Virus record (IMG/VR): IMGVR_UViG_3300037296_000160
Coordinates: 1 to 53,674 of that record
Reading direction: 5' to 3' (one strand)
From: a virus
Lineage: Duplodnaviria > Caudoviricetes
DNA length: 53,674 bases
The position numbers were made by a program, and so were the translations under genes. Of this stretch, positions 1 through 44,940 are shown in pieces (position 1 is the first letter of the stretch; each line of letters begins with the position of its first letter). A model generated the notes under the pieces. The model ran no database searches. It had not been told where the DNA came from and saw only the letters and a list, made by a program, of their open reading frames with translations.

Positions 1-426
1 TGGAAGGCGACCGCTACCTGTTCACCACCTATTCGCAGCTACAGGCCGTGAAGGGCAAAGAACCAGAGCGCCGCCCGCTTTTGCGCGCACTGGCAGGCAA
101 TGCCATGTTCCTGCTGGACGAAAGCCACGAGGCTGGCGGTCAGGCTGACACAGGCTGGAAAGACCCCGACGCGGTAGCCGACCGCGCGACGTTCATGCGC
201 GAAGTGCTGGCAATGGCAAAGGGGGCCGTGTTTTCGTCGGCCACCTACGCCAAGAACCCAACTGTCATGTCCCTCTACGCCAAGACGGACCTGTCACTCG
301 CCGTTGAAGATATCAGCGAACTAGGGGCCGCTATCGCGCTGGGCGGCGTCCCGCTGCAACAGGCCATCGCCAACATGCTTGTCGAAGCCGGTCAGTATGC
401 CCGCCGTGAACGCTCATTTGAGGGCG
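1..426. repeat. Terminal direct overlap, copy 1 (circularity / terminal redundancy)
   Basis: 1-426 matches 53249-53674 except at 62/53310, 170/53418, 191/53439 and 299/53547. Unit length is 53,248 bp. Confidence 0.97.
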
Positions 427-16105: not shown

Positions 16106-16536
16106 GTTATGGAATTGATCTGGAACTGGCCCACGCCGAGTTTGACCGAGGCGACCTGCGCGTCACGATGACATGGCTGTTCGAGGGGGCCGACCGGGCC
16201 ACCCCGCAGCCCTGCATGGTCCTGTCCCGCAGCGTCGAGCGCCAAGACCGCATGAAAATGCCCGTCGTCGTCACACTGGATAACGCTTGGCGTTGGGACC
16301 CCGCGACGTGGATCGAGTTTGACACCATGGAGCGCGCGTCTGGCTTTGCCGACAGCCTTGGTTTCGCGGTGAACAAACAGACCGTCATCACCATCGCGGG
16401 CCTGATTAACGACTACCTCGATGAATTGCTCACCATGCCCGTCGCCCCGCGCGTGAAGCAGACCAAACAAGCCGAAATGACGGTCATCAACCGCAACAGT
16501 GGCGAACAAATGGAAGTGGAGGTTTTGACGCGATGA
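16102..16536 (+). CDS. Hypothetical protein between terL and portal
   Basis: AGGAGG SD, ATGA coupling on both sides, coding-like codon bias. Confidence 0.8.
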   Translation: MSYGIDLELAHAEFDRGDLRVTMTWLFEGADRATPQPCMVLSRSVERQDRMKMPVVVTLDNAWRWDPATWIEFDTMERASGFADSLGFAVNKQTVITIAGLINDYLDELLTMPVAPRVKQTKQAEMTVINRNSGEQMEVEVLTR

Positions 16537-18782
16537 CAAGCATAGCTGTTGGGGAGAAGGTGCGCGAGTTTCGCAGCCTCTTGAACGAAACCCCCGAAGA
16601 TCAGGCGCAGCCGAACAAGCACGATAAGCACCTCGATACAGAGGAAGCCAAGGCGCTGCACCGCGAAATGATGGGCAGCTTTAGCCTTGAGCTGTCCCGG
16701 CAGGCCGCATCCCGCCGCCGCCGCGCCCGCGCAGAGGACTATTACCACGGCGTCCAGTTTACCGAGGCCGAGCGCCTTGAAATCGAGGGGCGCGGCCAGA
16801 CCGCGACCACGCTCAACATCATGGGGCCGTCGATTAACTGGATGCTGGGCACCGAGCGCCGCAACCGGGCTGACGGCAAGGTTCTGCCCCGCCGCAAGGA
16901 CGGACGCACCGACGCCGACTCCAAGACGCAGCTTTTGAAATACGTCGATGATTGCCACCACGCCGAAATGAAGAAATCGGCCGCATTTGCTGATGCGATC
17001 ATCACCGGGCTTGGCTGGCTGGAAACAGGCGTCCGCGATAGCGAAGCTGGCGGCGAACCTGTGTTCGTCGGCCACCCGGCGTGGCGGCAAATGGTCCATG
17101 ACAGCTTTGCCACAGAGTTGGATATGGGCGATGCGCGCTACATGTTCCGCGCCAAGTGGACGGACGTGAACATTGCGACGGCCATGTTCCCAGACCGCGC
17201 GCCAACGATCCGCGCCGCCGCGCTGCGCGACAACGGCATGTCGGGCGACGGCGGCATTGACGGCTGGGGCGATGACGCCATGGACAGCGTCGAGCAATTC
17301 GCCCTCGATACCCACGACTTTGGCTATGAGATTGCCGAGGCAATGCGCCCGCGTGTGCGGCTTATCGAGGCATGGACCCGCCGCCCGATGATGACGCCCT
17401 GCATGATCGGCGGCATGTTCGACGGCGAGATTTTCGACCCGCACAGCCACGGGCACGTCAACGAAGTCATCATGGGCAACGCGCGCGTCAAAGAGAAGCT
17501 GCGCAACCGGATGCAGGTTCACATTATGACGTCGGGCGGGCTGTTGCGGTCCCAGAACTCGCCCTATCGCCACAACAAGTTTCCATTCACCCCCGTCTGG
17601 GGCAACCGGCGCGCGTCTGACAACATGCCTTACGGCGTGGCTGATACGATGATCGACCTGCAAGACGACATCAACAAGCGCCAGATCAAAGCCACCTACA
17701 TTCTGAACACCAACAAGGTCGTGGCCTACGAGGGCAGCGTGTCCGACGTGGACGAGTTTCTTGAGGAAGTGCCGCGCCCTGACGGCGTGATCTGGATTAA
17801 GGAAGGCAAGCAAAAGCCTGATTTTAATGCAGATAAGGAGCTTGGGACGTCGCACCTTAACTCAATGTCTATGTCGATCGACATGGTTCAGCAGCTATCG
17901 GGCATCACTGACGAAAGCATGGGGCGCACCACCAACGCCACGTCAGGCCGCGCGATCAAGGCGCGTCAGGAGCAAGGGGCCATGACCACGGCCCACTACT
18001 ACGACAACTTTAGGTATGCCCTGCAAGTCCATGGCGAGAAACAGCTTTGCGTCTGTGAACAGTTTATCGACAAGGAAAAGCAATTTCGCATCGCCACCCC
18101 GCGCGGGGGCTTTGACTTTAAGACGGTGAACGAACCGGGCAACGCCGCAACGAACATCACCGCGTTTAAGGCTGACTTTCAGATGGGCGAGGAAGATTGG
18201 AAGGCCAGCAACCGGCAGGCGTCCGCTGACAGCTTTATCCAGATCATGTCGCAGCTTGCCCCGGCCAACCCGCAAGTGCTGACCTCGATCCTCGATCTAT
18301 TGGTAGACATGCTGGACGTGCCCTACGCCGAGGAAATCGCCTCCCGCCTGCGCCTGCAATTCAACATTGAAGACCCAGACGCCGACCCCAATGACCCGTC
18401 GCCGCAAGCCGTCGAACAGCGGGCCAAGAAGGAAGCCGCCGCAGCCGCAGCAGGCGAGGCCATGGAGATGCAGAAGGCCGCACAGCAAGCCGAAACCGAC
18501 AAGGCCACCGCCAGCGCCCGCGAAGCGCGCGCCAAGGCCGCACGGTCGGAAATCGAGGCGCAAAAGGAACTGTTGTCGATGGACCGTATCGCGTTCGACA
18601 ACATCAGCGTCATGCAAGCGCAGCGCGGCACCGCCGCGACCGCCGACGCCATGATCGAGGACGCCATCGCGCGTGTGAACGCCATGGTGCAGCCGCAGAC
18701 AGGGCAACCCCCTGCCCCTGCCCCCGATATGCCGCCCCCAGAGGCAGGCATGGACCCCGCAAGCCAACTTATCCCCGCATAA
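16533..18782 (+). CDS. Portal protein (podovirus type)
   Basis: 749 aa; DYYHGVQF..., DARYMFRAKW, FPFTPVWG.R....PYG...MIDLQDDINKR, SGRAIKARQEQG; coiled-coil C-terminus. Confidence 0.92.
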   Translation: MTSIAVGEKVREFRSLLNETPEDQAQPNKHDKHLDTEEAKALHREMMGSFSLELSRQAASRRRRARAEDYYHGVQFTEAERLEIEGRGQTATTLNIMGPSINWMLGTERRNRADGKVLPRRKDGRTDADSKTQLLKYVDDCHHAEMKKSAAFADAIITGLGWLETGVRDSEAGGEPVFVGHPAWRQMVHDSFATELDMGDARYMFRAKWTDVNIATAMFPDRAPTIRAAALRDNGMSGDGGIDGWGDDAMDSVEQFALDTHDFGYEIAEAMRPRVRLIEAWTRRPMMTPCMIGGMFDGEIFDPHSHGHVNEVIMGNARVKEKLRNRMQVHIMTSGGLLRSQNSPYRHNKFPFTPVWGNRRASDNMPYGVADTMIDLQDDINKRQIKATYILNTNKVVAYEGSVSDVDEFLEEVPRPDGVIWIKEGKQKPDFNADKELGTSHLNSMSMSIDMVQQLSGITDESMGRTTNATSGRAIKARQEQGAMTTAHYYDNFRYALQVHGEKQLCVCEQFIDKEKQFRIATPRGGFDFKTVNEPGNAATNITAFKADFQMGEEDWKASNRQASADSFIQIMSQLAPANPQVLTSILDLLVDMLDVPYAEEIASRLRLQFNIEDPDADPNDPSPQAVEQRAKKEAAAAAAGEAMEMQKAAQQAETDKATASAREARAKAARSEIEAQKELLSMDRIAFDNISVMQAQRGTAATADAMIEDAIARVNAMVQPQTGQPPAPAPDMPPPEAGMDPASQLIPA

Positions 18783-18803: not shown

Positions 18804-19652
18804 ATGGCAAACCCGCAGACACACTACGACGATCCGCCCATCAACGCCGAAGATGACGCCGAAATCGTCCTGACCGACGATGACCGCCGCCAGCTTACGC
18901 CAGCGGATATCGAAGCCCTGTCCGCTGTTGTGGATGCAGAGGTCATAGACGAGCAGCCCGCACCCGCGCCTGCCCCTGTGATCGATCAGCAGCCCGCCCC
19001 GGCCCCGGCACCGGCCACGGACTATAGCGCGGATATCGCTGCGCAGGATGCAGCTATGCGCGCGCTACGCGCAAGCTGGGACGACGGCGACGTGTCGGTT
19101 GATGACTACAACCGCCAGCAGGACGAATTGCAGGCCGCGCGCGATGAACTAATCACCGCCCGCGCTTTGCAGGAGGCTAACCCTGCCCCGGCCCAGCCCG
19201 AAGACAACGGCGGCGACCGGCAGGAAGACCCCGCCTTTGCCCTCGATGCGCAGAGATATGCGACCGCCTACCCCGAACTGTTCTCTGACGCGCACTTTAC
19301 CGCGTTCAACGCACTGTTCGAGCAAAACGACGCGCGGGCATCGAGCGCCAACCTCACCACCACGCAGCTACTTGAGAAGACGCACCGCGAGTATGCCGCA
19401 CTGGCCGAGGCACAGCATCGGCCATTGCAGGTATCCCTACCGGGCACCGGAGGCGTTGGTGGCCGCAAGGACGAAGTGCCGCCCAGCATTGCCGACGTGC
19501 CCGCGTCTGGTCTGGACGCGCACCAAGACCGCTTTTCGACCTTGGCAGCCCAGATCGACACGATGGACAACCCTGACGATATCGAGGCCATCTTGGCGAA
19601 GTTGCCCCCTGACCAACGCGATGCGTTCGCGTCATTTGGCGACGACGGATGA
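18804..19652 (+). CDS. Putative scaffolding protein
   Basis: Acidic, Pro/Ala-rich, helical; follows the portal; C-terminal helix (IEAILAKLPPDQRDAF). Confidence 0.65.
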   Translation: MANPQTHYDDPPINAEDDAEIVLTDDDRRQLTPADIEALSAVVDAEVIDEQPAPAPAPVIDQQPAPAPAPATDYSADIAAQDAAMRALRASWDDGDVSVDDYNRQQDELQAARDELITARALQEANPAPAQPEDNGGDRQEDPAFALDAQRYATAYPELFSDAHFTAFNALFEQNDARASSANLTTTQLLEKTHREYAALAEAQHRPLQVSLPGTGGVGGRKDEVPPSIADVPASGLDAHQDRFSTLAAQIDTMDNPDDIEAILAKLPPDQRDAFASFGDDG

Positions 19653-20044
19653 AGGTAAAACTCACCACCTTAACCGTCACTTTGAGCCGCGCAGCCGTGT
19701 TGCAGTTGCGCGGCTGCAACCTTTGCTACCTCGATAAGCAGGACGACGGCGGCACCGTTTTTGCGGTCAATCCGCAGCCCGACGTCGTCGTCAAGCATCA
19801 CCGCAAAGACCCCAAGACGGGCCTGCCCGAAACGGAAGGTGTGATTTTGGACGGCGTCACCATCGCCATTCAGATCGGTGACGCGATCACCACCAGCCAC
19901 GGCACTGGCCTAATCCGCGTCAAGCGGGGCACGTCTGCCCGCCCGACGTTCAAAGTCAGCGCGCCAGAGCATGACCGCATTACCGTCGTGCGCCGGGGGC
20001 AACCCGTCGGTGGACGCGCCAAAGAACTGGAGAACCAGCTATGA
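19649..20044 (+). CDS. Hypothetical beta-rich protein, possibly two tandem CsrA/RsmA-like domains
   Basis: Two ~50-aa halves with CsrA-like strand patterns: LTVTLSRAAVLQL...TVFAVNPQPDVVVKHHR and IAIQIGDAI...RPTFKVSAPEHDRITVVR. The CDS is likely real; the fold call is tentative. Confidence 0.45.
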   Translation: MKVKLTTLTVTLSRAAVLQLRGCNLCYLDKQDDGGTVFAVNPQPDVVVKHHRKDPKTGLPETEGVILDGVTIAIQIGDAITTSHGTGLIRVKRGTSARPTFKVSAPEHDRITVVRRGQPVGGRAKELENQL

Positions 20045-20340
20045 CCAGATTGCGCGAGGGCGTCATCGACCTCAATTTGAACGCGCCGGGGGGCGAGTGC
20101 AGCTATACCGTCAACCGTGCCGCGCTGGCCAAGAAGAACCTGCTAATCGACAAGCGGTATACCCGCGTCGTGCGCCTCAATAGCCCAGAGGAAGTGCAGC
20201 AGGCACTAACGAACGCGCAGCACAGCAAGGTTAGCAAAGACCCTTTGACCAAAGCCGTGGCGCAAAGCCTGACCAAAGCCCTGACGCTGGCCGTCAACGC
20301 CATCCAGAGCCACCAGAAGCATCAGGCGGCGGCGAAATGA
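20041..20340 (+). CDS. Hypothetical protein
   Basis: GGAG SD; coupled to both neighbours. Confidence 0.7.
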   Translation: MTRLREGVIDLNLNAPGGECSYTVNRAALAKKNLLIDKRYTRVVRLNSPEEVQQALTNAQHSKVSKDPLTKAVAQSLTKALTLAVNAIQSHQKHQAAAK

Positions 20341-20690
20341 GCGGTGACGAGCTGACAGACATGGCCGCTGTTCTGACCAAAGAGGGCGGGCCGAAAGGGA
20401 CAAAGAAGATCCCCATGAAGTCCGACCCCGGCGATCAAGAGAACATGGTGAAGATCAATAACGTCGCGGGCGAAGAACTGCGGCAATTCATCGAGCGATA
20501 TGAGCGCCTAGAGGCCGAGAAAAAAGACATAATGGAGGGCATGAAAGAGGTCATGGCCGAAGCCAAAGGCCGTGGCTACAACGTGAAGATACTTCGCAAG
20601 ATCATCGCCCTGCGCAAGCGCGACAAGGATGACTTGGACGAAGAAGAAGCGGTTTTGGAAATGTATATGGCCGCGTTGGGCATGTCCTAG
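20337..20690 (+). CDS. gapR: GapR/DUF2312 family nucleoid-associated DNA-binding protein
   Basis: VAGEELRQFIERYERLEAEKKDI...KEVMAEAKGRGYNVKILRKIIALRK...YMAALGM. Confidence 0.9.
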   Translation: MSGDELTDMAAVLTKEGGPKGTKKIPMKSDPGDQENMVKINNVAGEELRQFIERYERLEAEKKDIMEGMKEVMAEAKGRGYNVKILRKIIALRKRDKDDLDEEEAVLEMYMAALGMS

Positions 20691-21115
20691 TGACACCCGC
20701 CGCGCGCCAGCTTGCAAAAGCCGAGAAGGATGCGCGCGCCCGCGAGAAGCAGGTTAAGCGCGATGCGCGCGCCGCCACAGCCCCGGCCAACAAGTATGGG
20801 GCCAAGCGCACGGTCGTAGACGGCATAACATTCGACAGCAAACACGAGGCCCGCGTGTGGGGGCAGCTAGGCTATGCCGAGCGGTGCGGGCTGATACGCG
20901 ACCTCAAGCGGCAGGTGCCCGTGTTCCTGATAGGGCAGCACGGCCCCCTACTGGCCCGCAACGGCAGACCTATGCGCCTGACGTTCGACTTTACCTACAT
21001 CGACGCGGAAACCGGCCACCTGATCCACGCCGACGCCAAGGGCAAGCCAACCCCTGACTACGAGGTCCGCAAGGCCGTCGTGATCGCCATGGGACTGCAC
21101 GTCCTCGAACTGTAA
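20690..21115 (+). CDS. DUF1064-family PD-(D/E)xK nuclease-like protein
   Basis: NKYGAKRTVVDGITFDSKHEA...LKRQVP...DFTY...DAKG. Confidence 0.85.
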   Translation: MTPAARQLAKAEKDARAREKQVKRDARAATAPANKYGAKRTVVDGITFDSKHEARVWGQLGYAERCGLIRDLKRQVPVFLIGQHGPLLARNGRPMRLTFDFTYIDAETGHLIHADAKGKPTPDYEVRKAVVIAMGLHVLEL

Positions 21116-21141
21116 ACAACGCCGCCCAGGTGCTTACCAAA

Positions 21142-21312
21142 ATGACCGACAAAGACCTTGATACACTGGCCGATACCATCACCGCAGCCCTATCGCGCTG
21201 CAAGACGGTCAAAGAGGTTGTGGACACCGCAAACCACTACCGGGCCGACGTGGAACACATGAAGACGGCCAGCCGCACCCGCGCCATCCATCTAAGCAAT
21301 CTGCGCAGCTAG
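21142..21312 (+). CDS. Small hypothetical protein
   Basis: MTDKDLDTLADTITAALSRCKTVKEV...; helical and protein-like. Confidence 0.5.
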   Translation: MTDKDLDTLADTITAALSRCKTVKEVVDTANHYRADVEHMKTASRTRAIHLSNLRS

Positions 21313-21339
21313 CAGATCAAGATGCTGGGTAAAGAGGCA

Positions 21340-21488
21340 CAGCCCGAACAAGCACAAATGCAGATTTAATAAGATGCTTAGAAAAAAAGATTTGCAAATA
21401 CGCTGATTGACGCTAAAACCCTGTGTGTGGTCGAAACCATTAGACCACGATGCGACGAAACGTCTGCACATAGCCACAGGAGGCAACA
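21340..21488 (+). promoter_or_regulatory. Putative promoter of the accessory/early operon
   Basis: AT-rich; TGCAGAT at 21359, TGCAAAT at 21393, TTGACG at 21407, ACCAC-type octamers at 21436-21460. Confidence 0.5.
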
Positions 21489-21782
21489 GTGACCGAGCAG
21501 CAAGTCCCTTCAATGTTCGTAGCCAAGCGCACCATCCAACTGGACGGACGCAAGCTATACGACGTCGCCCTAGTGTTCGTGATCGACAAGGTCATGCCGT
21601 CAGGGATCACGCTTTGCCACCCGTCCACCACCTACATGACCCGCGTAAGCCCGGTTGAGCGCATCGCCCACAACATCACCGGGACAGTCAAGTTTCGCCC
21701 CGACGCGGACGGACGCCTGCGCCAGATCGAGCGCCGCAAGATCGACCCGAACGGCTGGGCACAAGTCAAAACCACAACCTAA
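21489..21782 (+). CDS. Hypothetical protein
   Basis: AGGAGG SD before the GTG start. Confidence 0.75.
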   Translation: MTEQQVPSMFVAKRTIQLDGRKLYDVALVFVIDKVMPSGITLCHPSTTYMTRVSPVERIAHNITGTVKFRPDADGRLRQIERRKIDPNGWAQVKTTT

Positions 21783-21833
21783 TCACCACAGGCGACCGCA
21801 CAGGTCTGCCGACACGCCACAGGAGGCACCCCC

Positions 21834-22196
21834 ATGACAATCGCTTTCACATTCAACGACACCGACCGCCCTGACCTTGGCGCTTGCAGCCCCTTTGGCG
21901 TCATCGAGACGGTTTCGCACTTTGCATCCACCCGGCACATCATGGCCGACCAGATAACCTTTGTGGCGTCTGAAACAGGCTGCGGCTACCACCTGATGCC
22001 CGACGCGCTGGCTATGGTCGATGAACGCCTGCGCGGCCTGCGTGGCTACGAGGCCAACTCGCCATGGTTCGATACAGGTCTGGGCCAAGCGATTATTGTC
22101 GTCACCTTCCAAAGCATGTTCAGCGCCCAAGCGATCAAGGAAGCCTTTGCGCGCCTGATCTGGCTCGATGAAGCAACAGCGGAGTGGGCGGCATGA
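21834..22196 (+). CDS. Hypothetical protein (weak resemblance to DUF7007-type mobile-element proteins)
   Basis: AGGAGG SD; SPFG...ITFVASETGCGYHL. Confidence 0.7.
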   Translation: MTIAFTFNDTDRPDLGACSPFGVIETVSHFASTRHIMADQITFVASETGCGYHLMPDALAMVDERLRGLRGYEANSPWFDTGLGQAIIVVTFQSMFSAQAIKEAFARLIWLDEATAEWAA

Positions 22197-22417
22197 GCGG
22201 CAACCTTCGCAAAACCATCGAGCGCGCAGCCATCGAGCGCGACTACGGCAGCGCCGTCGCCCAGACCAAAGACGCGCTGGGCGTGGTCAAAGAAACGCGC
22301 GCCGTATTGGTCCTGCATCACATGGATCAAGAAGATTGGTTCCGCCTGCCGGTCCCACTGCGCCGCCGCCTGCTGGGCGACTACGCCGCAACAGAAATCC
22401 GCTACCAACTAGACTAG
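22193..22417 (+). CDS. Hypothetical protein
   Basis: ATGA overlap with the upstream gene; GGAG SD. Confidence 0.7.
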   Translation: MSGNLRKTIERAAIERDYGSAVAQTKDALGVVKETRAVLVLHHMDQEDWFRLPVPLRRRLLGDYAATEIRYQLD

Positions 22418-22426
22418 GAAAACCAC

Positions 22427-22942
22427 ATGACCGTGAAACCACCCCTCAAGTTTCTACAATGCGCGCTGGGCTTTCAACACGCCACGGAAGGCATGACCGT
22501 AGCGGACGCACACCGCGTTCGTATCGGCCTGCTGGACCATATGGCAAGCACCACGGGCGCAGTCTTATCCCCTATGCGCGTGGCCGTGCCAAAGGACGTG
22601 CAAAGCCTGCCTGCGTCCATGACGTTCGCCTCTAACGTCGCAGATGACGTAGACACATGGCTTGTGCCAATGCCTGCATGGGCGACGGCGCGCGACAAGT
22701 TTGACGAAATCATGCGCCTTTCCCCGGCTGACATGCCCCCAAACAGCGACCACCTGTCCCTATTGCTCGATACCGTCCTGTTCCGCCTGCGTGAGCCGTC
22801 ACGGGCGGCAACATGGGAGGCGATAGGGGTGCCAGCACCGCGAGGCCGCGCCATGCTGGGTGCCCGCTCTGACAGTGTGACGTGGCCGACCTTCTTCACC
22901 CTGCGCGTCTACGCCTTTGGCGACGAAATGGAGACACGGTAA
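22427..22942 (+). CDS. Hypothetical protein, possible C-terminal HTH-like region
   Basis: AGGA SD; operon-packed. Confidence 0.7.
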   Translation: MTVKPPLKFLQCALGFQHATEGMTVADAHRVRIGLLDHMASTTGAVLSPMRVAVPKDVQSLPASMTFASNVADDVDTWLVPMPAWATARDKFDEIMRLSPADMPPNSDHLSLLLDTVLFRLREPSRAATWEAIGVPAPRGRAMLGARSDSVTWPTFFTLRVYAFGDEMETR

Positions 22943-23421
22943 TGGCGAACTGGAAAACAATGACCACCGCCAAATCCCTGCCCCTGCACCCCAAGCGGGA
23001 GCGGGAGATAACCGAGTGGGCCAAGCGGCACGGATATGACGACGAGGCCATCGCGGCGACCATCGAGGCGCATAAGAACGTGATGACCTACATGAACAAC
23101 ACCTACGTTGCCACGGTCCTCAAGGCCGAGGTCTGGGGGGAGGGCTGGCCCGAAATGGCCCAACTGTCCATTCGCCGCATAGACCGCAAGGTCATCCACG
23201 ATTGGCGCGCGCTGCAACAGATCAAGTCCGATATCTTTGGGGCCAACGCCGAGGGCGTAGAACTCTACCCCGCCGCCGACCGCGTCGTAGATACCGCGAA
23301 CAGCTACCATATCTTTGTGCCCCTCGATCCTAGCATCCATTTCCCCTTTGGCTGGCGCACTGGCCTGCGCGCGGACGATGCGGCACAGAACGAGCGCCCC
23401 GGCGCAGGGGGTGAACTATGA
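22942..23421 (+). CDS. DUF7694-like phage protein
   Basis: LSIRR.D....HDWRALQQIK.DIFG...EGVELYP...RVVDTANSYHIF pattern; TAATG coupling. Confidence 0.7.
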   Translation: MANWKTMTTAKSLPLHPKREREITEWAKRHGYDDEAIAATIEAHKNVMTYMNNTYVATVLKAEVWGEGWPEMAQLSIRRIDRKVIHDWRALQQIKSDIFGANAEGVELYPAADRVVDTANSYHIFVPLDPSIHFPFGWRTGLRADDAAQNERPGAGGEL

Positions 23422-23714
23422 CCACCATTGCCCTGATCGCCATAGCGGCCCTTGCCTTCGCGCTGGGCGTGATGTGGGAGCGTGACCGCCCGCGCCGCCG
23501 CGCCTTGGCCCGGTTCCGCAACAATGCACCGCTGCGCCGCGCCATGCAGACAGAGGCGTCCCAATGGAACGGACGCCAGCTTGAGCAAATCAAAGCGATG
23601 AACCGTTGCGCAGCGGGCAACTTGCCCCCGCTTGAGGTCCACTACACCCGGTTTCCGCCGAACTGGCACGAGACAATCGGCCAGCACGGCACCAACGAGC
23701 AGACACAAGGATAA
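23418..23714 (+). CDS. Hypothetical protein with N-terminal TM helix
   Basis: MTTIALIAIAALAFALGVMW followed by a basic stretch. Confidence 0.65.
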   Translation: MTTIALIAIAALAFALGVMWERDRPRRRALARFRNNAPLRRAMQTEASQWNGRQLEQIKAMNRCAAGNLPPLEVHYTRFPPNWHETIGQHGTNEQTQG

Positions 23715-23719
23715 AACCA

Positions 23720-24496
23720 ATGAACGACGAAACCACGAAACCAGTAACCGCATTGCCGCCCGCAGACTTCAACGCCATGGCGCTGGAAGCACTGACAGCC
23801 GCGTGTGACCCGGCCCGCGTCCAAGAGATTGTGGCGAAGAAGATCACCGAGACGGTGGATCGCGCCATTGAGGACGCCACGCGCAGCTACTCGCCCTTTG
23901 GTCAGGCACTAGAGGGGAAGCTGAAAGACGCGCTGTCCATCCAGAACCTCAATCTGCCAAGCTACAACACGATCATCTGTTCCATGGTGCAGAAGGCCGT
24001 AGAGGCCAACGTGTCCGAATTGATAGCGGGCCGCTTGAAGACAGACCTCGATGCTATGCTGGCCGTCGCGCCCAAGACGATCAAGCTGTCAGAGATTGTG
24101 ACCTCGATGCGATCTGAACACGAGGGGAATGACTACGGCCCGGTCGTGACCTGCCACGTTGACCAAGACGGCGGCGATGATGACTTCTGGGGGCGGAACT
24201 GGACGATCTGGCTTGATGACCGCGAACACTACGATTGGGCCAGCCGCAAGGATGCGTCGGTAAGGATCGCCGTGCGCCACGGTATCCGCAAAAACATGGC
24301 CGAAGCTGGGCACCCCGAACACGTCGGCACCATCAGCGCGGTCTATGAAAACGGCGGTGTGCTGGCAGATATCAAGAAGGGCTTCACCAGCCGCAAGAAC
24401 TACGGCTTGGCCAATACCCTGCTGGGCTACTACGCCGCTGAAACCGTTATCGTGGTCGATGAAGACGACGTTGTAACCAGCGTGGGGGATTACTGA
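23720..24496 (+). CDS. Hypothetical phage protein
   Basis: 258 aa, AAGGA SD, coding-like bias. Confidence 0.8.
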   Translation: MNDETTKPVTALPPADFNAMALEALTAACDPARVQEIVAKKITETVDRAIEDATRSYSPFGQALEGKLKDALSIQNLNLPSYNTIICSMVQKAVEANVSELIAGRLKTDLDAMLAVAPKTIKLSEIVTSMRSEHEGNDYGPVVTCHVDQDGGDDDFWGRNWTIWLDDREHYDWASRKDASVRIAVRHGIRKNMAEAGHPEHVGTISAVYENGGVLADIKKGFTSRKNYGLANTLLGYYAAETVIVVDEDDVVTSVGDY

Positions 24497-24822
24497 TGCC
24501 CGCCGCGATCAAGATGAACAGCATGGTCAAAGCTGTAGACCTTGCCACAGGCAAAGAGAGCGAGAGCGTTGTAAGCTGGGGGGTGTTGCCGCCCGCGCCA
24601 GACCGGTGCCAAACCTGCGCCGTGGACCACACGCCAGACCAGCCGCATGACGCGGGTTCGCTTTTCTACCAATTCACGTTCGGCAATGAGCATGGCCGCG
24701 CCCCGACGTGGACCGACGCCATGGCGCATTGCACCGCCGCTGTGCGCGACGAGTGGACCGACAACCTGCGCGCCATGGGCGTGGATATCCCAAAGATGGA
24801 GGGAAACGACGATGCAAGCTGA
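24496..24822 (+). CDS. Hypothetical protein with a putative metal-binding CxxC/H motif
   Basis: CQTCAVDH...PH...YQF....GR.PTW.DAMAHC. Confidence 0.7.
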   Translation: MPAAIKMNSMVKAVDLATGKESESVVSWGVLPPAPDRCQTCAVDHTPDQPHDAGSLFYQFTFGNEHGRAPTWTDAMAHCTAAVRDEWTDNLRAMGVDIPKMEGNDDAS

Positions 24823-25957
24823 CCCGATAGCCCAAGCCACGATAACCACCAAGGACGCGCGCCGCATTGCCGCCGCCATGGGGGGTGTCATCGAGCGCCG
24901 CAACACGATCCCGGTGCTGGGGTGTCTGCGCTTCAAGATCGCCAAGGGCGGTATCAGCGTTACCGGTACAGACCTCGATATACGGATGACCCTGCACATA
25001 GAGGCCGAGACGTCGGGCGAAGCTGTGATCCTGATAGACGCCGCCCGGTTTGCTGGCTTTGCTGGCGCTGGGCTGGGCGACATAGTGCTAAAGGTCATCC
25101 CCCCGGCCAAGGGGTCACAATCGCAGATGAACGTCATCGAGTTATCGAGCGGCGATATCACCCTGCAACTGCTGGACCGCCTGCCACCAGAGGACTTTCC
25201 GACGTTCAACCAGCACTTGAAGGGCGCAAAGGCTTTCCCGGCCACGCAAAGCGACCTGCTGCGCGTCTTCAAGTTGGCAAGCCACTGCATCAGCACCGAG
25301 GAAACCCGCTACTATCTGAACGGCATATACCTGTCCGAGAAGCCAGACGGCACCACCCTGCGCGGCGTGGCGACCGACGGGCACCGCTTGGCCTGCATCG
25401 ACACAGGCGTAGAGACGCAAGGCGGGATGGATAAGACCGAGGGCAAGGGGGCGATCCTGCCCCGCAAGACGGTAGACCTGCTGAAAAGCCTGATGACCGA
25501 GGGGGCCAACGATCCTGTCAACATGCGGCTAACCAACACCCACTGCGCGTTTGTCTGGGAAGGTGTCGAGATAGATACCAAGATGATCGACGGCACCTAC
25601 CCAGACTATACCCGCGTGATCCCCAAGGGGGATGAAACAGGCCGCGTCCAGCTATCCACGGACACGGTGCGCCGGGTTATGAGCATTGGCCGCGCGCTGG
25701 GCGGGGGCACGTCCGTCGCCTGCGCCCTCGATCTGGACGCCAACACCATGACCATCACAGGGATGGAAGGGGAGAAGGTGGCCGCGCCTATGAGCGCAAC
25801 AGGCAAGGGCCGCATAGGCTTCAACTTGAAGTATCTGGCCCAACTGGCGCGCGCCGTCCCGAACATAACGATGCAGGTCATCGAGGCCAACGGTCCCGCG
25901 CGTTGCTTTGGTGACGATCCGCTTGCCATGTTCGTCCTGATGCCGATGCGGGTTTAA
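24812..25957 (+). CDS. dnaN: DNA polymerase III beta sliding-clamp homologue
   Basis: IERRNTIPVL, GTDLDI, ISTEETRYYLNG, VATDGHRLA, ILPRKTV, IDGTYPDY.RVIP, IGFN.KYL, VLMPMRV. Confidence 0.93.
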   Translation: MQADPIAQATITTKDARRIAAAMGGVIERRNTIPVLGCLRFKIAKGGISVTGTDLDIRMTLHIEAETSGEAVILIDAARFAGFAGAGLGDIVLKVIPPAKGSQSQMNVIELSSGDITLQLLDRLPPEDFPTFNQHLKGAKAFPATQSDLLRVFKLASHCISTEETRYYLNGIYLSEKPDGTTLRGVATDGHRLACIDTGVETQGGMDKTEGKGAILPRKTVDLLKSLMTEGANDPVNMRLTNTHCAFVWEGVEIDTKMIDGTYPDYTRVIPKGDETGRVQLSTDTVRRVMSIGRALGGGTSVACALDLDANTMTITGMEGEKVAAPMSATGKGRIGFNLKYLAQLARAVPNITMQVIEANGPARCFGDDPLAMFVLMPMRV

Positions 25958-25959
25958 CG

Positions 25960-26373
25960 ATGACCCGTGCGCGTGTGACGGCCACAAGACCAGCCGACGA
26001 GAACAACCAAGTGCTGACCGTTGTAGGGGGAGGCGGTGGCTATCGCCGCACACCCTGCCCCGGTTGCCCGTGGCGCACAGAGAACGACGGCGATTTTCCG
26101 GCCGAGGCGTTCAGACATAGCGCAGGGACCGCCTACGACATGGCGCAATCGACCTTTGGTTGCCACGAGAGCGGGGCAGAGAAGCCAGCAACGTGCGCCG
26201 GGTTCCTGCTGCGCGGTGCCGCCCACAACTTCAAGGTTCGCACGGGTGCCCGCATAGAGGGGCTATACAACGACGTTCACGCCGACGGCGCGGACCTGCA
26301 CGACAGTTACAGAGCAATGGCAGAGGCAAACGGCGTCGATCCAGATGACCCCGTTCTTGCCCCCTGCCGGTAA
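25960..26373 (+). CDS. DUF6283-like Cys-rich protein
   Basis: PCPGCPWR...FPAEAF...TFGCHES...CAGFL. Confidence 0.75.
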   Translation: MTRARVTATRPADENNQVLTVVGGGGGYRRTPCPGCPWRTENDGDFPAEAFRHSAGTAYDMAQSTFGCHESGAEKPATCAGFLLRGAAHNFKVRTGARIEGLYNDVHADGADLHDSYRAMAEANGVDPDDPVLAPCR

Positions 26374-26384
26374 GGAGAAGCCGC

Positions 26385-26594
26385 ATGAGCGACAAACCAA
26401 TGCCAGAGGCGGACTACATCGCAGCCTTCACCGCTGAAATGGTCCGCGTAGGGGGGGAGACGTTCGCAGATGGATCGTCAATCCGCGAGTATGCCCAAGA
26501 GGTAGCGCCCACCTACTACCGTGACCCTATGACCAGAGAGGACGGACCAGAAGCCGCCGTAGAGGCTGACATGGACTGTTGGGAGGGAGCATAA
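26385..26594 (+). CDS. Small acidic hypothetical protein
   Basis: AAGGAG SD; ends PEAAVEADMDCW. Confidence 0.75.
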   Translation: MSDKPMPEADYIAAFTAEMVRVGGETFADGSSIREYAQEVAPTYYRDPMTREDGPEAAVEADMDCWEGA

Positions 26595-26836
26595 TGCTAG
26601 ACACGACAGACAACCGGGCGCTGGGCACTATGGAGTCGCAGCAAACCGTAGACCGCGTGACCGTTGAAACGATAGCAGGCAGTAACGAGGTGTCAGTCTA
26701 CCAAGAACACGCTGCTGGCGGTGTCCAGCCGCCGGGGGAGGTGACGCTGTTTGGTATGAGAGACTTGCGCGCGCTGCACTTCCTGACAGGCGAGTTGATC
26801 CGAGACGCCGAGAACGTAGCGAGGGCGCATCCATGA
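26594..26836 (+). CDS. Hypothetical protein
   Basis: GGAG SD; TAATG coupling. Confidence 0.65.
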   Translation: MLDTTDNRALGTMESQQTVDRVTVETIAGSNEVSVYQEHAAGGVQPPGEVTLFGMRDLRALHFLTGELIRDAENVARAHP

Positions 26837-27129
26837 GCGATCTAGTCGAGACGAGTGAGGACATTGCAGTCAAGCTGCGCCTATGGGACGCCACCAAGCG
26901 CGAACTGTTTAGGTTTGCTGACCGATATGCCAAGGCCGCGATACCGGGCAAGAAGCTGTCACCAGAGCAAGAGGACGTCCTGTTTGCCGTAGGGCAGAAG
27001 AAATACCCGCTGTCCCTTGTGGTAGCCATAGCGGACAACATGGGGCTGGATGGGACGCTACCTGCAAACGTAGAGGAAAAGCTGACCATGTATCGCCACA
27101 AGCTGCGCCTGTTCGTGCCGGGGCGGTAA
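26833..27129 (+). CDS. Hypothetical protein
   Basis: ATGA coupling; last gene before the terminator. Confidence 0.7.
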   Translation: MSDLVETSEDIAVKLRLWDATKRELFRFADRYAKAAIPGKKLSPEQEDVLFAVGQKKYPLSLVVAIADNMGLDGTLPANVEEKLTMYRHKLRLFVPGR

Positions 27130-27151
27130 GCCACCCCCTAGCGCACCAAAC

Positions 27152-27191
27152 AAAAAGCCCGCCCCGTGATCCACAGGGCGGGCTTAACTTT
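27152..27191. terminator. Probable bidirectional intrinsic terminator
   Basis: AAGCCCGCCC/GGGCGGGCTT stem with an A-tract on the left and a T-rich tail on the right, between convergent genes. Confidence 0.75.
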
Positions 27192-27286
27192 GTCTGGCGC
27201 GCTGGGCGGGCCTTTACGATGCTAGGTTTACGTCGCACAAAACGTTGCCATTTATCGTCAAGCAGTTTCAGCATCCTTGTCGGTCC

Positions 27287-27493
27287 TTAAAATGATTGCA
27301 TATACCAAGTGTCGCCGGGTTCGGCGCAACAGTGAATGTCTGTGTGTTTTTCTGGGTCGTATCCGCCGTCTACTTTGTAGAGCAGGCCGTGCTTGATAGC
27401 GATTTCTTGCAGGTCGCCAGCGTCAATGTCATGGCCTTCCGGCCACTCACTAAGCAAATCCTTGGCGAAGGCTTCAAAGTCTGGCTTTTGCAT
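27287..27493 (-). CDS. Small hypothetical protein
   Basis: 68 aa, AAGGA SD; divergent from the resolvase. Confidence 0.7.
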   Translation of the reverse strand: MQKPDFEAFAKDLLSEWPEGHDIDAGDLQEIAIKHGLLYKVDGGYDPEKHTDIHCCAEPGDTWYMQSF

Positions 27494-27534
27494 GTCTGCG
27501 GTCCTTGTGTGAGTGTTCGCTTCTGATGCCCACC

Positions 27535-27620
27535 TTACACAATCTTGCAGTTGTGTAAATACATAATCGCATACGGTTACTGTATGACTTATCTTGACAC
27601 CATAGGTGCGCCGTGCGTAA
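27535..27620. promoter_or_regulatory. Putative res site / resolvase promoter
   Basis: Inverted repeats TTACACAA-N8-TTGTGTAA (27535-58) and CATAC..GTATG (27570-86); TTGACA at 27594. Confidence 0.5.
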
Positions 27621-27628
27621 TGTTCGGC

Positions 27629-28381
27629 ATGATGAATTTACCCGATTTCAGCGGCAACCTTTACGGCTATGCGCGCGTGTCCACCGAGGACCAGAACCTA
27701 AACCTTCAGCTTGACGCCTTACGGGCGGCAGGCATCCCGGATAGCCGCATCTTCACAGAGAAGGTGTCTGGCACGTCTAAGAAGCGGCCCAAGCTGGAAC
27801 TCGTGCGCAAGATCATGCGCGAGGGTGATGCGCTGTGCGTCTGGCGTCTGGACCGCGTAGGGCGGTCTGTGGTGGCCGTGGTAGAGTTTGTCGAAGGTCT
27901 TAGCGCTGACGGCATCTTGTTCCGGTGCCTGACTGAACCAATCGACACTACCACACCGACCGGAAAGCTGATGCTGCACATGATGGCGGCGCTGGCAGAG
28001 TTCGAGCGCAACATGATCGCTCAGCGGACGCGGGCCGGAATGGACGCGGCACGGTCGCGGGGCGTCAAGATGGGGCCGAAACACCGCATCTTGGATTGTC
28101 CCAAGCGGCTGGCGCGCTTCATTGAGTTGTGGGCCGATGGGCGTATCCCGTCCGGCGACATGAGCGCAAATGATGTGTGGGCCGATCTGAATACAGTGCC
28201 GTCCAAGCTGCCAGAGATGAAGGCACAAAGCAGCTATAGCAACTGGAAGGCACGTCTATTCGCGGGGTTTGAAGCATCGCTAGATCAGGCGATTAGCAAG
28301 GGCGACGACAAGGCCGCGAAGGTAAAGCCGCTGTTCCTGCAATGGCGCAAAGGTATCCTAGAGCAGAAAGGCAAAAGCTAA
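27629..28381 (+). CDS. Small serine recombinase (resolvase/invertase family)
   Basis: YGYARVSTEDQ, RPKL, GD.L.VWRLDR.GRS, IDTTTPTGKLM..MMAALAEFER; too short for a large serine integrase. Confidence 0.93.
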   Translation: MMNLPDFSGNLYGYARVSTEDQNLNLQLDALRAAGIPDSRIFTEKVSGTSKKRPKLELVRKIMREGDALCVWRLDRVGRSVVAVVEFVEGLSADGILFRCLTEPIDTTTPTGKLMLHMMAALAEFERNMIAQRTRAGMDAARSRGVKMGPKHRILDCPKRLARFIELWADGRIPSGDMSANDVWADLNTVPSKLPEMKAQSSYSNWKARLFAGFEASLDQAISKGDDKAAKVKPLFLQWRKGILEQKGKS

Positions 28382-29202
28382 TGCGTGGATATACCCTGCC
28401 AGCCGGAAACGTGCAGATTAGCTTTAGCGGCGGGCGCACGTCTGCATACATGCTGCACCAGATACTTGCGGTAAACGGCGACCTGCCAGAACGAGTGCAA
28501 GTCGTGTTTTCAAACACCGGGCGCGAAATGGACGGGACGCTTGATTTTGTGCAAGAGTGCGCCGAACGCTGGAATATTCGTGTGGTATGGGTTGAGGATG
28601 CCAAACGGGGCGGTGACGCTCTTTTTGACGTGGTGTCGCACAATTCGGCCAGCCGTTTCGGTGAACCTTTCAAGCGGCTAATAGAGCGCAAGAAAGCCTG
28701 CCCAGATCAGTCTAAGCGGTTCTGCACAGAGCATCTAAAGATCCTGCCCGCTCGGCGTTATCTTATATCGTTGGGCTGGAAGGAGTGGACGAACGCAGTA
28801 GGCATCCGTGCCGATGAACCGCACCGTCTGAAACCATCCCCCGACAAGCGGGTTAGGAAGTGGTATCCGCTGGAAGATGTAGACAAGCCTGCGGTGATGC
28901 GGTTTTGGGCCGCGCAACCTTTCGATCTGCGCATTGAGCCAGGTTATGGGAATTGCGATGGCTGTTTTATGAAGTCAGAGGCGCAGCTTGCGGCGCTATG
29001 CCGTGACTACCCTGATCGGGCTGAATGGTGGGAAGATATGGAGCGCAAGGCGTCTGCTTTGACCGCGAGTGCTGGCGGCGCGCGGTTCCGTGATCAATTC
29101 ACGCGGGCGCAACTGCGCGACACTGTAGATAGGCAGGGCGATTTCCTTTTTTCCACCGAAGAAGGCTGGTGCCAAAAGAACCACGGCGAATGCACCGGAT
29201 GA
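28381..29202 (+). CDS. PAPS-reductase-family / adenine-nucleotide alpha-hydrolase (PP-loop, Cys-rich)
   Basis: ISFSGGRTSAYM, FSNTGRE, RFCT..LK, GIRADE, GNCDGCF. Confidence 0.85.
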   Translation: MRGYTLPAGNVQISFSGGRTSAYMLHQILAVNGDLPERVQVVFSNTGREMDGTLDFVQECAERWNIRVVWVEDAKRGGDALFDVVSHNSASRFGEPFKRLIERKKACPDQSKRFCTEHLKILPARRYLISLGWKEWTNAVGIRADEPHRLKPSPDKRVRKWYPLEDVDKPAVMRFWAAQPFDLRIEPGYGNCDGCFMKSEAQLAALCRDYPDRAEWWEDMERKASALTASAGGARFRDQFTRAQLRDTVDRQGDFLFSTEEGWCQKNHGECTG

Positions 29203-29242
29203 AACCGAACAACCCACGAAGGAGCACCCAATACCGCCTGAC

Positions 29243-29272
29243 AGGCCCGTAGCGCGCCGCTGCGGGCCTTTC
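29243..29272 (+). terminator. Hairpin terminator after the resolvase-PAPS unit
   Basis: AGGCCCGTAGCG...CGCTGCGGGCCT-TTCG. Confidence 0.55.
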
Positions 29273-29353: not shown

Positions 29354-29502
29354 TTGATCGAGGGCGTGGGCTTGTGGTATCAACCACGTCAACGGCAGAG
29401 CGCAGGAGCGCCGCCGACCGCGCAGGAGCGCGACACACACCCCCCATTCGACTGCGGTGTAGGATGCACCCGGTTCATTCCTTTAATGAACGAGGTATCC
29501 CT
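29354..29502 (+). promoter_or_regulatory. Capsid-operon promoter and structured leader with three AGGA-loop hairpins
   Basis: TTGATC (29354) and TGGTATCAA; GCGC-AGGA-GCGC (29400-11), CGCGC-AGGA-GCGCG (29419-32), GGTGT-AGGAT-GCACC (29456-70); GTTCATT/AATGAAC hairpin before the GAGGT SD. Confidence 0.7.
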
Positions 29503-30612
29503 ATGTCTTCCACCCAACTGGCTTTTGGCGACCCGAAGGCCGCTGTTCGTTGGTCCGCTAACCTTGCGCTGGACGTGAACCACGCTGGCTTCTGGTCCAC
29601 CCGCTTTGTCGGCAAAGGCTCGCAATTCGCTATCGAGGAAAAGACCGAACTCGAAGGCGAAGCTGGCGACACGATCCACTTCGACCTGCTGGTCAACCTG
29701 ACCGAAGAACCCACCTTTGGCGACGCCGAGGTTGCGGGCACTGCCGAGAGCATGAAGCACCGTTCTGACCGCATCCACATCGACCAGATGCGCCACCCGG
29801 TGTCTGCGCCCGGTCGTATGGGCCGCAAGCGTAGCGTCCACAACTTCCGCAAAGACGCGAAGATGCTGCTCAAGGACTACTGGGCCAAGTGGAAGGACGA
29901 AGTCACGTTCATCTACATGTCTGGCAACCGGGGCATCAACGAAGACTTCATCATGCGTCAGGGCTGGGAAGGCTTTGCCGAGAACAAGCTGCGCGCGCCT
30001 GACCGTGCCCACCTGATGTATGGCGGCGATGCGACGTCCAAGGCGTCCCTGACCGCTGACGACAAGATGGGCCGCAATGTCATCGAACTGGCGGAAACCA
30101 AGTGCCGCATGATGCGCGCCACGGATCGCAGCGTTGCCAACATGCAGCCGCTGAACATCGACGGGGGCAAGCACTACGTTTGCGTCATGTCGCCGTTCCA
30201 AGAGCATGACATGCGCCAAGACGTCGGCCCGTCGGGCTGGCTGACCGTTCAGCGTGACGCAGCCGCCGCAGAGGGCAAGAACAACGCCATCTTCAAGGGC
30301 GGTCTGGGCATGGTGAAGAACGTCGTTCTGCACAGCCACGAGAACGTCGTCCGCATGGATGACTACGGCGTCACTGGCGACGTCAGCGCCGCCCGCGCCC
30401 TGTTCCTTGGCGCACAGGCCGGTGTCTGCGCACACGGCACCAAGGATAGCCGCAAGTATCTGTGGCACGAGGAAGAAGTCGATAAGGGCAACAAGCCCGA
30501 AATCACGGCGGGCACGATCTGGGGCATCAACAAGTCCCAATTCAACGGCAAGGACTTTGGCTGCATCAGCATCGACACCGCCTGTTCCGACCCGAACAGC
30601 ACCGCAGCCTAA
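29503..30612 (+). CDS. Major capsid protein, N4-gp56/DUF4043 family
   Basis: FGDPKA..RWS..L, ELE.EAGDTI.FDL, IDQ.RH.V, GGDATSK, IFKGGLGM..NVVLH, ARALFLGAQA, DFG.ISIDT. Confidence 0.92.
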   Translation: MSSTQLAFGDPKAAVRWSANLALDVNHAGFWSTRFVGKGSQFAIEEKTELEGEAGDTIHFDLLVNLTEEPTFGDAEVAGTAESMKHRSDRIHIDQMRHPVSAPGRMGRKRSVHNFRKDAKMLLKDYWAKWKDEVTFIYMSGNRGINEDFIMRQGWEGFAENKLRAPDRAHLMYGGDATSKASLTADDKMGRNVIELAETKCRMMRATDRSVANMQPLNIDGGKHYVCVMSPFQEHDMRQDVGPSGWLTVQRDAAAAEGKNNAIFKGGLGMVKNVVLHSHENVVRMDDYGVTGDVSAARALFLGAQAGVCAHGTKDSRKYLWHEEEVDKGNKPEITAGTIWGINKSQFNGKDFGCISIDTACSDPNSTAA

Positions 30613-44834: not shown

Positions 44835-44940
44835 GGCGCTTTTCAGGCGGTGCGCCGCCTGATACCCTAGCCCCATCATAACACAGACCTACAGCGCAGG
44901 ACGTGCTGGCGTCTCACCTTGCCCCAAGGAGAGTGCCGTC

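Follow-up and report, generated by a model that had tools for sequence, protein, structure and literature searches.

What kind of protein is encoded by the 131-codon open reading frame (ORF) at positions 19649-20044 of the IMG/VR virus record IMGVR_UViG_3300037296_000160, and what might that protein do in the phage head module in which its gene lies? The record, a 53.7-kb sequence with an estimated completeness of 94%, was analysed over its whole length of 53,674 nucleotides (nt), hereafter the window. Sequence similarity indicates that it is the genome of a Bcep22-like podophage, its portal protein showing 44% identity to that of Bcep22 (PF16510, E 1.8e-147) and its capsid protein 56% identity to the Bcep22 major head protein (E 2e-143). 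An earlier account made from the letters of the window, the sequence-only reading, had proposed that this frame, ORF131, encodes a fused pseudo-dimer of CsrA, a regulator that binds GGA in hairpin loops, and the same ligand is proposed here for ORF131. On the evidence assembled below, ORF131 is probably a diverged single-chain CsrA-like protein, while the whole statement, which adds that it is a GGA-RNA-binding regulator of late genes, falls a little short of an even chance. The frame and its two repeats are located as follows.

19649-20044, plus strand: ORF131, candidate single-chain two-repeat CsrA-like protein of 131 amino acids (aa) plus stop
19649-19831, plus strand: N-terminal repeat, residues 1-61, with predicted strands at 5-11, 16-20, 23-30, 36-42 and 48-51
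19832-20041, plus strand: C-terminal repeat, residues 62-131, with predicted strands at 65-67, 70-74, 79-82, 87-90, 100-106 and 112-115

The identity as a fused CsrA pseudo-dimer is supported by three independent lines, namely the genomic slot, profile alignments and the neighbourhood of the predicted fold, and it fails at the Pfam CsrA family. The slot is defined by two genes that lie upstream of ORF131.

16533-18782, plus strand: P22-type portal gene (PF16510), anchor of the conserved module
18804-19652, plus strand: gp52-like gene of 282 aa, directly upstream of ORF131 and coupled to it by ATGA (phrog_8246, E 9.5e-16)

The statement in the sequence-only reading that CsrA-like ORFs have been annotated by the capsid gene of Bcep22-like podoviruses is correct, as the records of two phages attest. 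In Bcep22, the annotated order is portal, gp52, gp53, 'CsrA-like regulator' (64 aa) and major head protein, and in Pavtok it is portal, gp8, 'CsrA-like regulator' (63 aa) and capsid. Among 66 viral loci collected with a profile of phage CsrA-like proteins, the CsrA-like ORF adjoins a Bcep22-type portal and/or capsid gene in 55, and the distance from its stop to the capsid ATG is usually 74-191 nt, with three longer gaps of 630, 2002 and 3691 nt. A second collection, with the capsid protein as bait, comprised 80 loci from bacterial genomes and metagenome-assembled genomes, many of them alphaproteobacterial; a CsrA-like ORF lies no more than 400 nt upstream of the capsid gene in 65 and farther upstream in five. 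In the available DNA of the other ten there is no such ORF: at one of these loci, L117, the slot contains a CsrA-like ORF that falls below threshold, one is too short, and the remaining eight have no portal within at least 3 kb of the capsid gene, so that their head module is split as it is in the window. The portal was located in four of five split-module genomes searched, and in all four prophages a CsrA-like gene of 64-75 aa stands directly after the gp52-like gene (hidden Markov model (HMM) E 6e-7 to 7e-12). The place for a CsrA-like gene is therefore the one behind gp52, be the capsid gene near or far, and ORF131, which follows the gp52-type gene immediately and stands between portal and capsid, occupies this slot exactly. 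Wherever the slot was examined, in 55 viral and 75 genome loci (70 of the 80 capsid loci, the sub-threshold case and the four split-module prophages), a CsrA-like gene is a fixed part of the head module; no ORF131-type protein was found in the 80 capsid-bait loci.

The second line consists of profile comparisons. Against a diverse profile of 129 phage CsrA-like domains, prophage ones included, both halves of ORF131 were aligned by hhalign over the full domain and in register, the C-terminal half with P 0.0023 over 59 columns (probability 12.7%) and the N-terminal half with P 0.014 over 54 columns (probability 3.1%). The real score was reached by one of 395 column shuffles for the C-terminal half and by two of 395 for the N-terminal half, and the reversed halves scored at shuffle level. 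Taken together by Fisher's method, both halves yield about 4e-4, a value that applies to one template named in advance. In the reciprocal direction, an HMM of the ORF131 family scored the 129 domains at a mean of 1.96 bits versus -0.29 bits for their reversed copies (best 10.3 versus 5.4), its alignments running from position 67 to 122 across entire CsrA-like proteins; the A1 HMM placed positions 67-122 of ORF131 along whole prophage CsrA-like proteins, with best scores of 10.2-11.6 bits. The corresponding signal of the N-terminal repeat is weak, with a mean of -0.32 bits for real and -1.36 for reversed domains. Two arginines, R52 in the N-terminal repeat and R115 in the C-terminal repeat, are invariant in the family, which has two members only, and they sit at, or two residues off, the conserved Arg column of the CsrA-like profile. 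In E. coli CsrA, RNA is contacted by a conserved Arg at the last strand and by a hydrophobic or basic first strand. The earlier claim that each half follows the CsrA strand pattern holds with modest significance, each half aligning to the profile and the two halves not being significantly alike.

The third line is the predicted fold. The AlphaFold2 (AF2) model of ORF131 is a compact 11-strand beta-sandwich with a disordered tail at 121-131, which agrees with the earlier description of the protein as beta-rich; its mean predicted local distance difference test score (pLDDT) is 80.2 and its predicted template-modelling score (pTM) 0.73, values obtained from a two-sequence alignment for which three of five models scored at least 70 and two about 30. 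The ESM Atlas has its own model of the protein, with pTM 0.74. In the prediction, five strands fall in the first repeat and six in the second. As a control, a natural tandem CsrA of 114 aa was modelled (3869-4213 of locus L077), the one two-domain ORF among the 67 CsrA-like ORFs of the 66 viral loci; its model has nine strands and a helix at pLDDT 82. In the BFVD library, rank 2 for ORF131 is A0A6J5RUQ1, a 114-aa 'Carbon storage regulator' of an uncultured phage (template-modelling (TM) score 0.53 by query and 0.60 by target, E 6e-3), and this protein is the top match of the control (E 4e-9, 36% identity). The control has 12 BFVD matches at E <= 1e-3, ten of which are also among the best 50 of ORF131, and the best-50 lists of the two models have 17 rows in common in BFVD (counted by hand) and 22 in the PDB, the common PDB rows including class II fusion-protein domains, the periplasmic domains of CcsBA and CcmF, and the FHA domain of EssC. 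In the models, strand and loop lengths in both halves of ORF131 follow the five-strand pattern of the control, and the C-terminal half has an extra bulge in its third strand that coincides with the hhalign gap. Judged by these predictions, the ORF131 model lies within the structural neighbourhood of a genuine tandem CsrA.

If ORF131 is CsrA-like, the question becomes what it could bind, and here the capsid gene and its leader come into play.

29400-29431, plus strand: two exact GCGC-AGGA-GCGC hairpins, candidate binding sites (from sequence and fold)
29459-29505, plus strand: third AGGA element, GTAGGATGCACC, predicted to pair with the stretch from Shine-Dalgarno to ATG
29503-30612, plus strand: major capsid protein gene, the proposed regulated target
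44894-44906, plus strand: family-type motif GCGCAGGACGTGC, 47 nt upstream of the ATG (44941) of a giant ORF

The two hairpins, at 29400-29411 and 29420-29431 and thus 20 nt apart, each read GCGCAGGAGCGC and are the only exact copies in the window. The third AGGA lies at 29461, ahead of the GAGG Shine-Dalgarno sequence at 29492 and the ATG at 29503; its pairing comes from single-sequence folds, and MAFFT places the element in register with the motif of the family. In relatives, the capsid leader, which starts behind a -10-like box, carries a nearly invariant GCGCA-N-GA(N)GUGC; the 3' part of that motif is complementary to the bases between Shine-Dalgarno and AUG, with compensatory changes visible. 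The element lies about 50 nt before the capsid ATG in loci L013-L067 and L096-L175, and it can form either a small hairpin or a pairing with the start region. Helices of at least 6 bp are found in 21 of 29 leaders, of at least 7 bp in 17 and of at least 8 bp in 12. A covariance model built from ten viral leaders (R1) gave 40 matches at E <= 1 on 80 independent genome loci, about 35 of which end at the capsid ATG. In the alignment of these 40 matches fitted by R1, which leans toward the model, 89.7% of cells pair versus 74.9 +/- 1.1 after shuffling (0 of 500 shuffles reach the observed value), and 14 of the 15 pairs show compensatory changes on both sides, slid controls pairing at 26-53%. RNAalifold on MAFFT alignments of the leaders recovered only the invariant hairpin of 3-4 bp, the long-range helix requiring the model-guided alignment, and Rfam has no family for this leader.

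The earlier expectation of AGGA hairpins in late leaders was borne out at the capsid leader and by one motif before the giant ORF, and not as an excess across the window. AGGA-loop hairpins as a class number 8 in the whole window versus 4.7 +/- 2.7 in shuffles, which is no enrichment, and GCGCAGGA occurs 10 times versus 4.7 +/- 2.3 expected. The family-type motif before the giant ORF occurs once versus 0.08 expected; R1 matches it weakly (12.6 bits, E 0.27), and in its predicted fold the motif pairs with the start-codon region no better than in shuffles (z -0.8). Giant ORFs stand at both ends of the window, at 44941-53673 (2911 aa, open at the 3' side) and at 3-6482 (2159 aa, open at the 5' side), which points to a single gene of about 5000 aa spanning the junction of a circularly permuted record; we take it to be like the gene for the giant virion protein of Bcep22-like phages. 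Upstream of the capsid leader, after a PAPS-reductase-like gene, there is a GC-rich stem-loop at 29240-29272, which is probably terminator-like and sets that gene apart from the leader; its match to Thr_leader is weak (14.4 bits, E 4.2) and falls far short of the gathering threshold.

Taken together, the most economical account, and in our judgement a likely one, is that ORF131 is a local, highly diverged CsrA-like gene of the head module, with two repeats in one chain. It would be the descendant, or the replacement, of the small CsrA-like gene that follows the gp52-like gene. The chain would form a pseudo-dimer within one molecule and present two RNA-binding edges that differ from each other, each pairing the opening strand of one repeat with the closing strand of its partner, as first and last strands of opposite units are combined in CsrA. 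The ligands of ORF131 would be GGA-containing sites in the leaders of late mRNAs, with the two GCGC-AGGA-GCGC hairpins and the helix between AGGA and start region ahead of the capsid gene as the foremost candidates, and binding would tune capsid translation, by repression or activation, relative to the co-translated portal and gp52-like protein. We infer this RNA-regulator role because of the name of the family, the basic charge of the protein and the duplicated hairpins.

A wider proposal, which we hold only tentatively, is that Bcep22-like phages possess a dedicated circuit in which the CsrA-like protein of the head module controls the mRNA of the capsid, and perhaps of the giant virion protein, through the leader, and that ORF131 and its leader co-evolved within it. 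The GCGCA-N-GA element would have two alternative states, a small hairpin to which the protein binds and a helix with the start region. In the lineage of the window, the regulator would have changed into a single-chain, asymmetric pseudo-dimer, and the leader would have acquired two further perfect AGGA hairpins at a spacing of 20 nt, so that the valency of the protein and the number of RNA sites would have evolved together.

A number of results weigh against this account of identity and function, at the levels of sequence, fold and leader RNA. With respect to sequence, no PF02599 match was obtained for the whole protein at E <= 1, for either half at E <= 10, or in the six frames of the whole window at E <= 10, while in the same run as the halves Bcep22 gp54 scored 32.2 bits and Pavtok gp9 19.5 bits (the curated cut-off being 27 bits). 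Standard annotation offers DUF5659 at E 0.07 as the best Pfam row and E 0.14 as the best PHROG value, BLASTP of ORF131 against Bcep22 gp54, Pavtok gp9 and Bcep22 gp53 gave nothing significant, and a search of PDB sequences with the two-sequence ORF131 profile had no match. The sole match of a 9-sequence CsrA-like profile to ORF131 covers nine residues (IQIGDAITT against VKIGDATIT). With a 55-sequence CsrA-like HMM, the real halves and their shuffles cannot be told apart, the fraction of shuffles reaching the real score being 0.26 and 0.56 for the N-terminal halves and 0.045 and 0.095 for the C-terminal halves; the similarity between the two halves of ORF131 is not significant; and the P values of the Wilcoxon paired test of real versus reversed domains are inflated because the 129 sequences are related to one another. 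Fusion of a gp53-like part with CsrA is not supported, since the BLASTP comparison with gp53 was non-significant, and a search for longer CsrA proteins yielded single-domain proteins with tails rather than tandems.

With respect to the fold, the uneven scores of the five AF2 models are joined by the outcome of the structural searches. Foldseek of the ORF131 model against PDB and BFVD gave no match at E <= 1e-3, the PDB rows being the SPOP MATH domain and other weak rows only, which were set aside. An exhaustive VIA scan of the PDB is led by EssC-type FHA domains with Z 8.0 (root-mean-square deviation (rmsd) 3.4, 92 residues aligned) and Z 7.5 (rmsd 3.2, 91 aligned), a best Z of 7-8 being background by the tool's own statement. 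FHA is named in the title of 19 of the best 50 rows (Z 5-8), and about ten further rows are presumably FHA-containing proteins. No CsrA chain is among these 50 rows, although 1vpz is in the library, and the control finds the CsrA chains 1vpz (Z 6.9), 5dmb (Z 5.9) and 4kji (Z 5.0). The ESM Atlas gives FHA clusters (TM 0.55 and 0.52) among the neighbours of ORF131, and the CsrA clusters of 88-105 aa to which the control leads are absent from them. As modelled, the fold cannot separate a CsrA-type from an FHA-type sandwich.

These observations give substance to an explanation that we consider improbable, according to which ORF131 has no relation to CsrA, being a beta-sandwich of FHA-like or generic kind that ousted the CsrA-like gene and serves protein-protein contacts, for example in host take-over or assembly, its similarity to the CsrA profile being chance together with common beta-strand patterning. 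Besides the FHA rows and clusters, the missing Pfam CsrA match and the 11 model strands, eleven being the number in FHA domains, accord with it. The sequence accords less: PF00498 (FHA) has no match in ORF131 or its halves, and a profile of 19 FHA domains taken from genomes aligns with P 0.16 over 39 columns and out of register, versus P 0.0023 and 0.014 for the CsrA-like profile. The phosphothreonine-binding loop residues of FHA domains, Gly-Arg, Ser-x-x-His and Asn, are not evident by eye, no Ser-x-x-His following the third or fourth strand, a placement made without a reliable alignment. The control itself matches the EssC FHA domain at Z 6.3-6.5, so that the FHA likeness is partly a property of the tandem-CsrA sandwich, and the exact occupation of the CsrA slot would have to be a coincidence. 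When profile and fold are checked together against CsrA, as the sequence-only reading had suggested, both halves align and neighbours are held in common with the control, whereas the FHA sandwich is equally close.

With respect to the leader, the capsid leader of the window was missed by R1 even with filters off at E <= 10, so its likeness to the leader of the family rests on MAFFT and single-sequence folds. Of the 80 genome loci, 36 have G, 19 have T and 11 have A at the central position of GCGCA-N-GA, and 14 show no motif; the motif therefore reads ATGA or AAGA in 30 of 80 relatives. Because the middle base is so often T or A despite the presence of a CsrA-like gene in nearly all of the 80 loci scored, a strict GGA requirement does not describe the family. 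Co-occurrence of gene and hairpin in relatives, proposed earlier as a check, was found as a motif at the capsid start and was not found as a constant GGA.

The variable base is among the points that favour a further explanation, unlikely in our view, in which ORF131 is derived from CsrA and keeps the sandwich, has lost RNA regulation, and acts in head assembly, in association with the virion or on another partner, the AGGA hairpins then having another purpose, for instance in stabilising the transcript or for a host factor. ORF131 is probably co-translated with the portal and gp52-like genes, its sequence is extremely diverged, and the only invariant residue near the last strand is one Arg per repeat. 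Moreover, the csrA-like gene of phage JC1 has been called a moron, and one peptide of its product was detected in purified virions (PMC9144972, in the portion available). This explanation has to contend with a basic composition (19 K+R versus 13 D+E, counted from the sequence), as nucleic-acid binders have, with the duplication of exact AGGA-loop hairpins in this phage's own capsid leader, and with the lack of PHROGs similarity to known head proteins.

The reading frame itself was given correctly by the sequence-only reading, including the C-terminal stretch that it quoted (...FKVSAPEHDRITVVRRGQ...). The start ATG at 19649 overlaps the stop of the upstream 282-aa ORF, which is a homologue of Bcep22 gp52 (26% identity, E 2e-8), and the stop at 20042-20044 overlaps the ATG of the following ORF, both as ATGA.

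20041-20340, plus strand: ORF99, coupled downstream gene whose order is kept in contig L095, with no Pfam or PHROG match

Since no promoter or terminator consensus was called from the portal gene to 21300 and the starts and stops overlap, ORF131 is probably co-translated with its neighbours; likewise, no sigma-70 consensus promoter or terminator was called near ORF131 or within the capsid leader. A HMMER scan of 1.84e9 representatives with ORF131 returned five proteins at E <= 1e-3, the query included. Three are long repeat proteins that were taken as spurious, and the sole true homologue is P0005, with 116 aa, 39% identity and E 2e-12. P0005 lies on a JGI metagenome contig (L095) that carries, in the same order as the window, the C-terminus of a gp52-like protein, P0005 with an ATGA overlap, an ORF99-like gene and the start of a GapR-like gene. 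Because its homologue sits in matching gene order, ORF131 is a real gene, conserved in a second, distant phage. The explanation that it is a chance open frame, which the many overlapping spurious ORFs of this GC-rich window might invite, is effectively refuted by this homologue on an independent contig and by confident compact folds from two predictors (AF2 and the ESM Atlas). No further family members were found in viral contigs, in genomes or in a word-indexed protein set, which returned only ORF131 itself. There was also no match by tblastn of ORF131 against 50,697 phage records, by megablast of 10 kb of the window, or in a scan of viral contigs for portal and capsid with the window's own peptides.

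The head module of the window is split by about 9.4 kb (20041-29202) between ORF131 and the capsid gene, a stretch that holds replication-type genes, a serine recombinase and a PAPS reductase. It includes a GapR-like gene (PF10073, E 2.9e-32) and a DUF1064 resolvase-like gene, and, by reading of translations only, a beta-clamp-like ORF (24647-25957), the serine recombinase (27545-28381) and the PAPS-reductase-like ORF (28342-29202). In three alphaproteobacterial prophages, the portal is about 33 kb from the capsid gene and on the opposite strand, which could reflect an inversion or a different integration point. One IMG/VR contig (L071) carries two CsrA-type genes about 200 nt apart, at 3336-3584 and 3787-3999, one canonical and one of the Bcep22 type.

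Annotations of CsrA-like genes in Bcep22-like phages go back years, and here these genes are tied to a covarying leader of the capsid mRNA; in one lineage, the homodimer appears as a candidate to have been replaced by a barely recognisable single chain. If the circuit proposed for Bcep22-like phages is true, it would be a small CsrA system encoded by a phage and directed at one defined target, its asymmetric two-site binder would be useful for dissecting how CsrA bridges two RNA sites, and annotation by Pfam only would be missing a conserved regulator. Phage csrA genes are on record, with 30 phages listed and no earlier report stated in the accessible text of PMC7366521, and no functional test of a phage CsrA-like protein was found in the accessible texts of PMC9144972 and PMC7366521. 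A full-text literature search, which an earlier mention of longer CsrA forms or of the leader motif may have escaped, found no description of a natural one-chain CsrA.

Several known systems can be set beside ORF131. The FHA domains of the EssC/YukB-type N-terminus (PDB 5fwh, 1wv3) resemble it in size and as all-beta sandwiches, and differ in the Pfam and profile results given above, in a Z that stays at background and in a genomic context that does not fit. The CsrA/RsmA/RsmE homodimer (PDB 1vpz) has the architecture proposed for ORF131, in which five-strand units interlock in one beta-sandwich, the dimer being described as an interlocked single-domain sandwich in the available text of PMC2954204. 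By comparison, ORF131 is one chain without detectable direct sequence similarity, and RNA binding is proposed for it by analogy. A precedent for a CsrA-like sandwich in one chain is the C-terminal domain of the YqeH GTPase (PDB 3ec1), set beside ORF131 by description: according to the same available text, this two-repeat domain is very similar in architecture to the CsrA dimer (PMC2954204), and its repeats are compact, lie side by side in a segment-swap relation to CsrA, and form part of a large GTPase.

Closer to ORF131 are the natural tandem CsrAs, represented by the control from L077, A0A6J5RUQ1 of BFVD and the ESM Atlas clusters of 88-105 aa, which place two repeats in one sandwich and, of the named viral proteins, come nearest in structure to the ORF131 model. 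The Atlas clusters have 96, 56, 72 and 89 members, three of them being named CsrA or carrying PF02599. Unlike ORF131, the tandems are recognisable by sequence, through matches to Pfam-type HMMs and PF02599 on the Atlas clusters. In the L077 tandem, the first repeat lacks its last strand and the C-terminal helix is kept, whereas the ORF131 model has 5+6 strands and no helix; the L077 gene adjoins repressor and integrase genes rather than the head module in which ORF131 lies.

The CsrA of Bcep22-like phages (Bcep22 gp54, Pavtok gp9, JC1 gp47; PF02599) agrees with ORF131 in the slot after a gp52-type gene within the module from portal to capsid, in a profile to which both halves of ORF131 align, and in an all-beta, basic composition. 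These proteins are single domains of 57-75 aa, presumably homodimers, and Bcep22 gp54 passes the Pfam cut-off, in contrast to the 131 aa and two unlike repeats of ORF131, which scores nothing in Pfam. The CsrA family is characterised by a 55-75 aa subunit of an interlocked homodimer, and the one-chain ORF131 departs from this; if it is CsrA-like, it is a fused pseudo-dimer rather than a homodimer.

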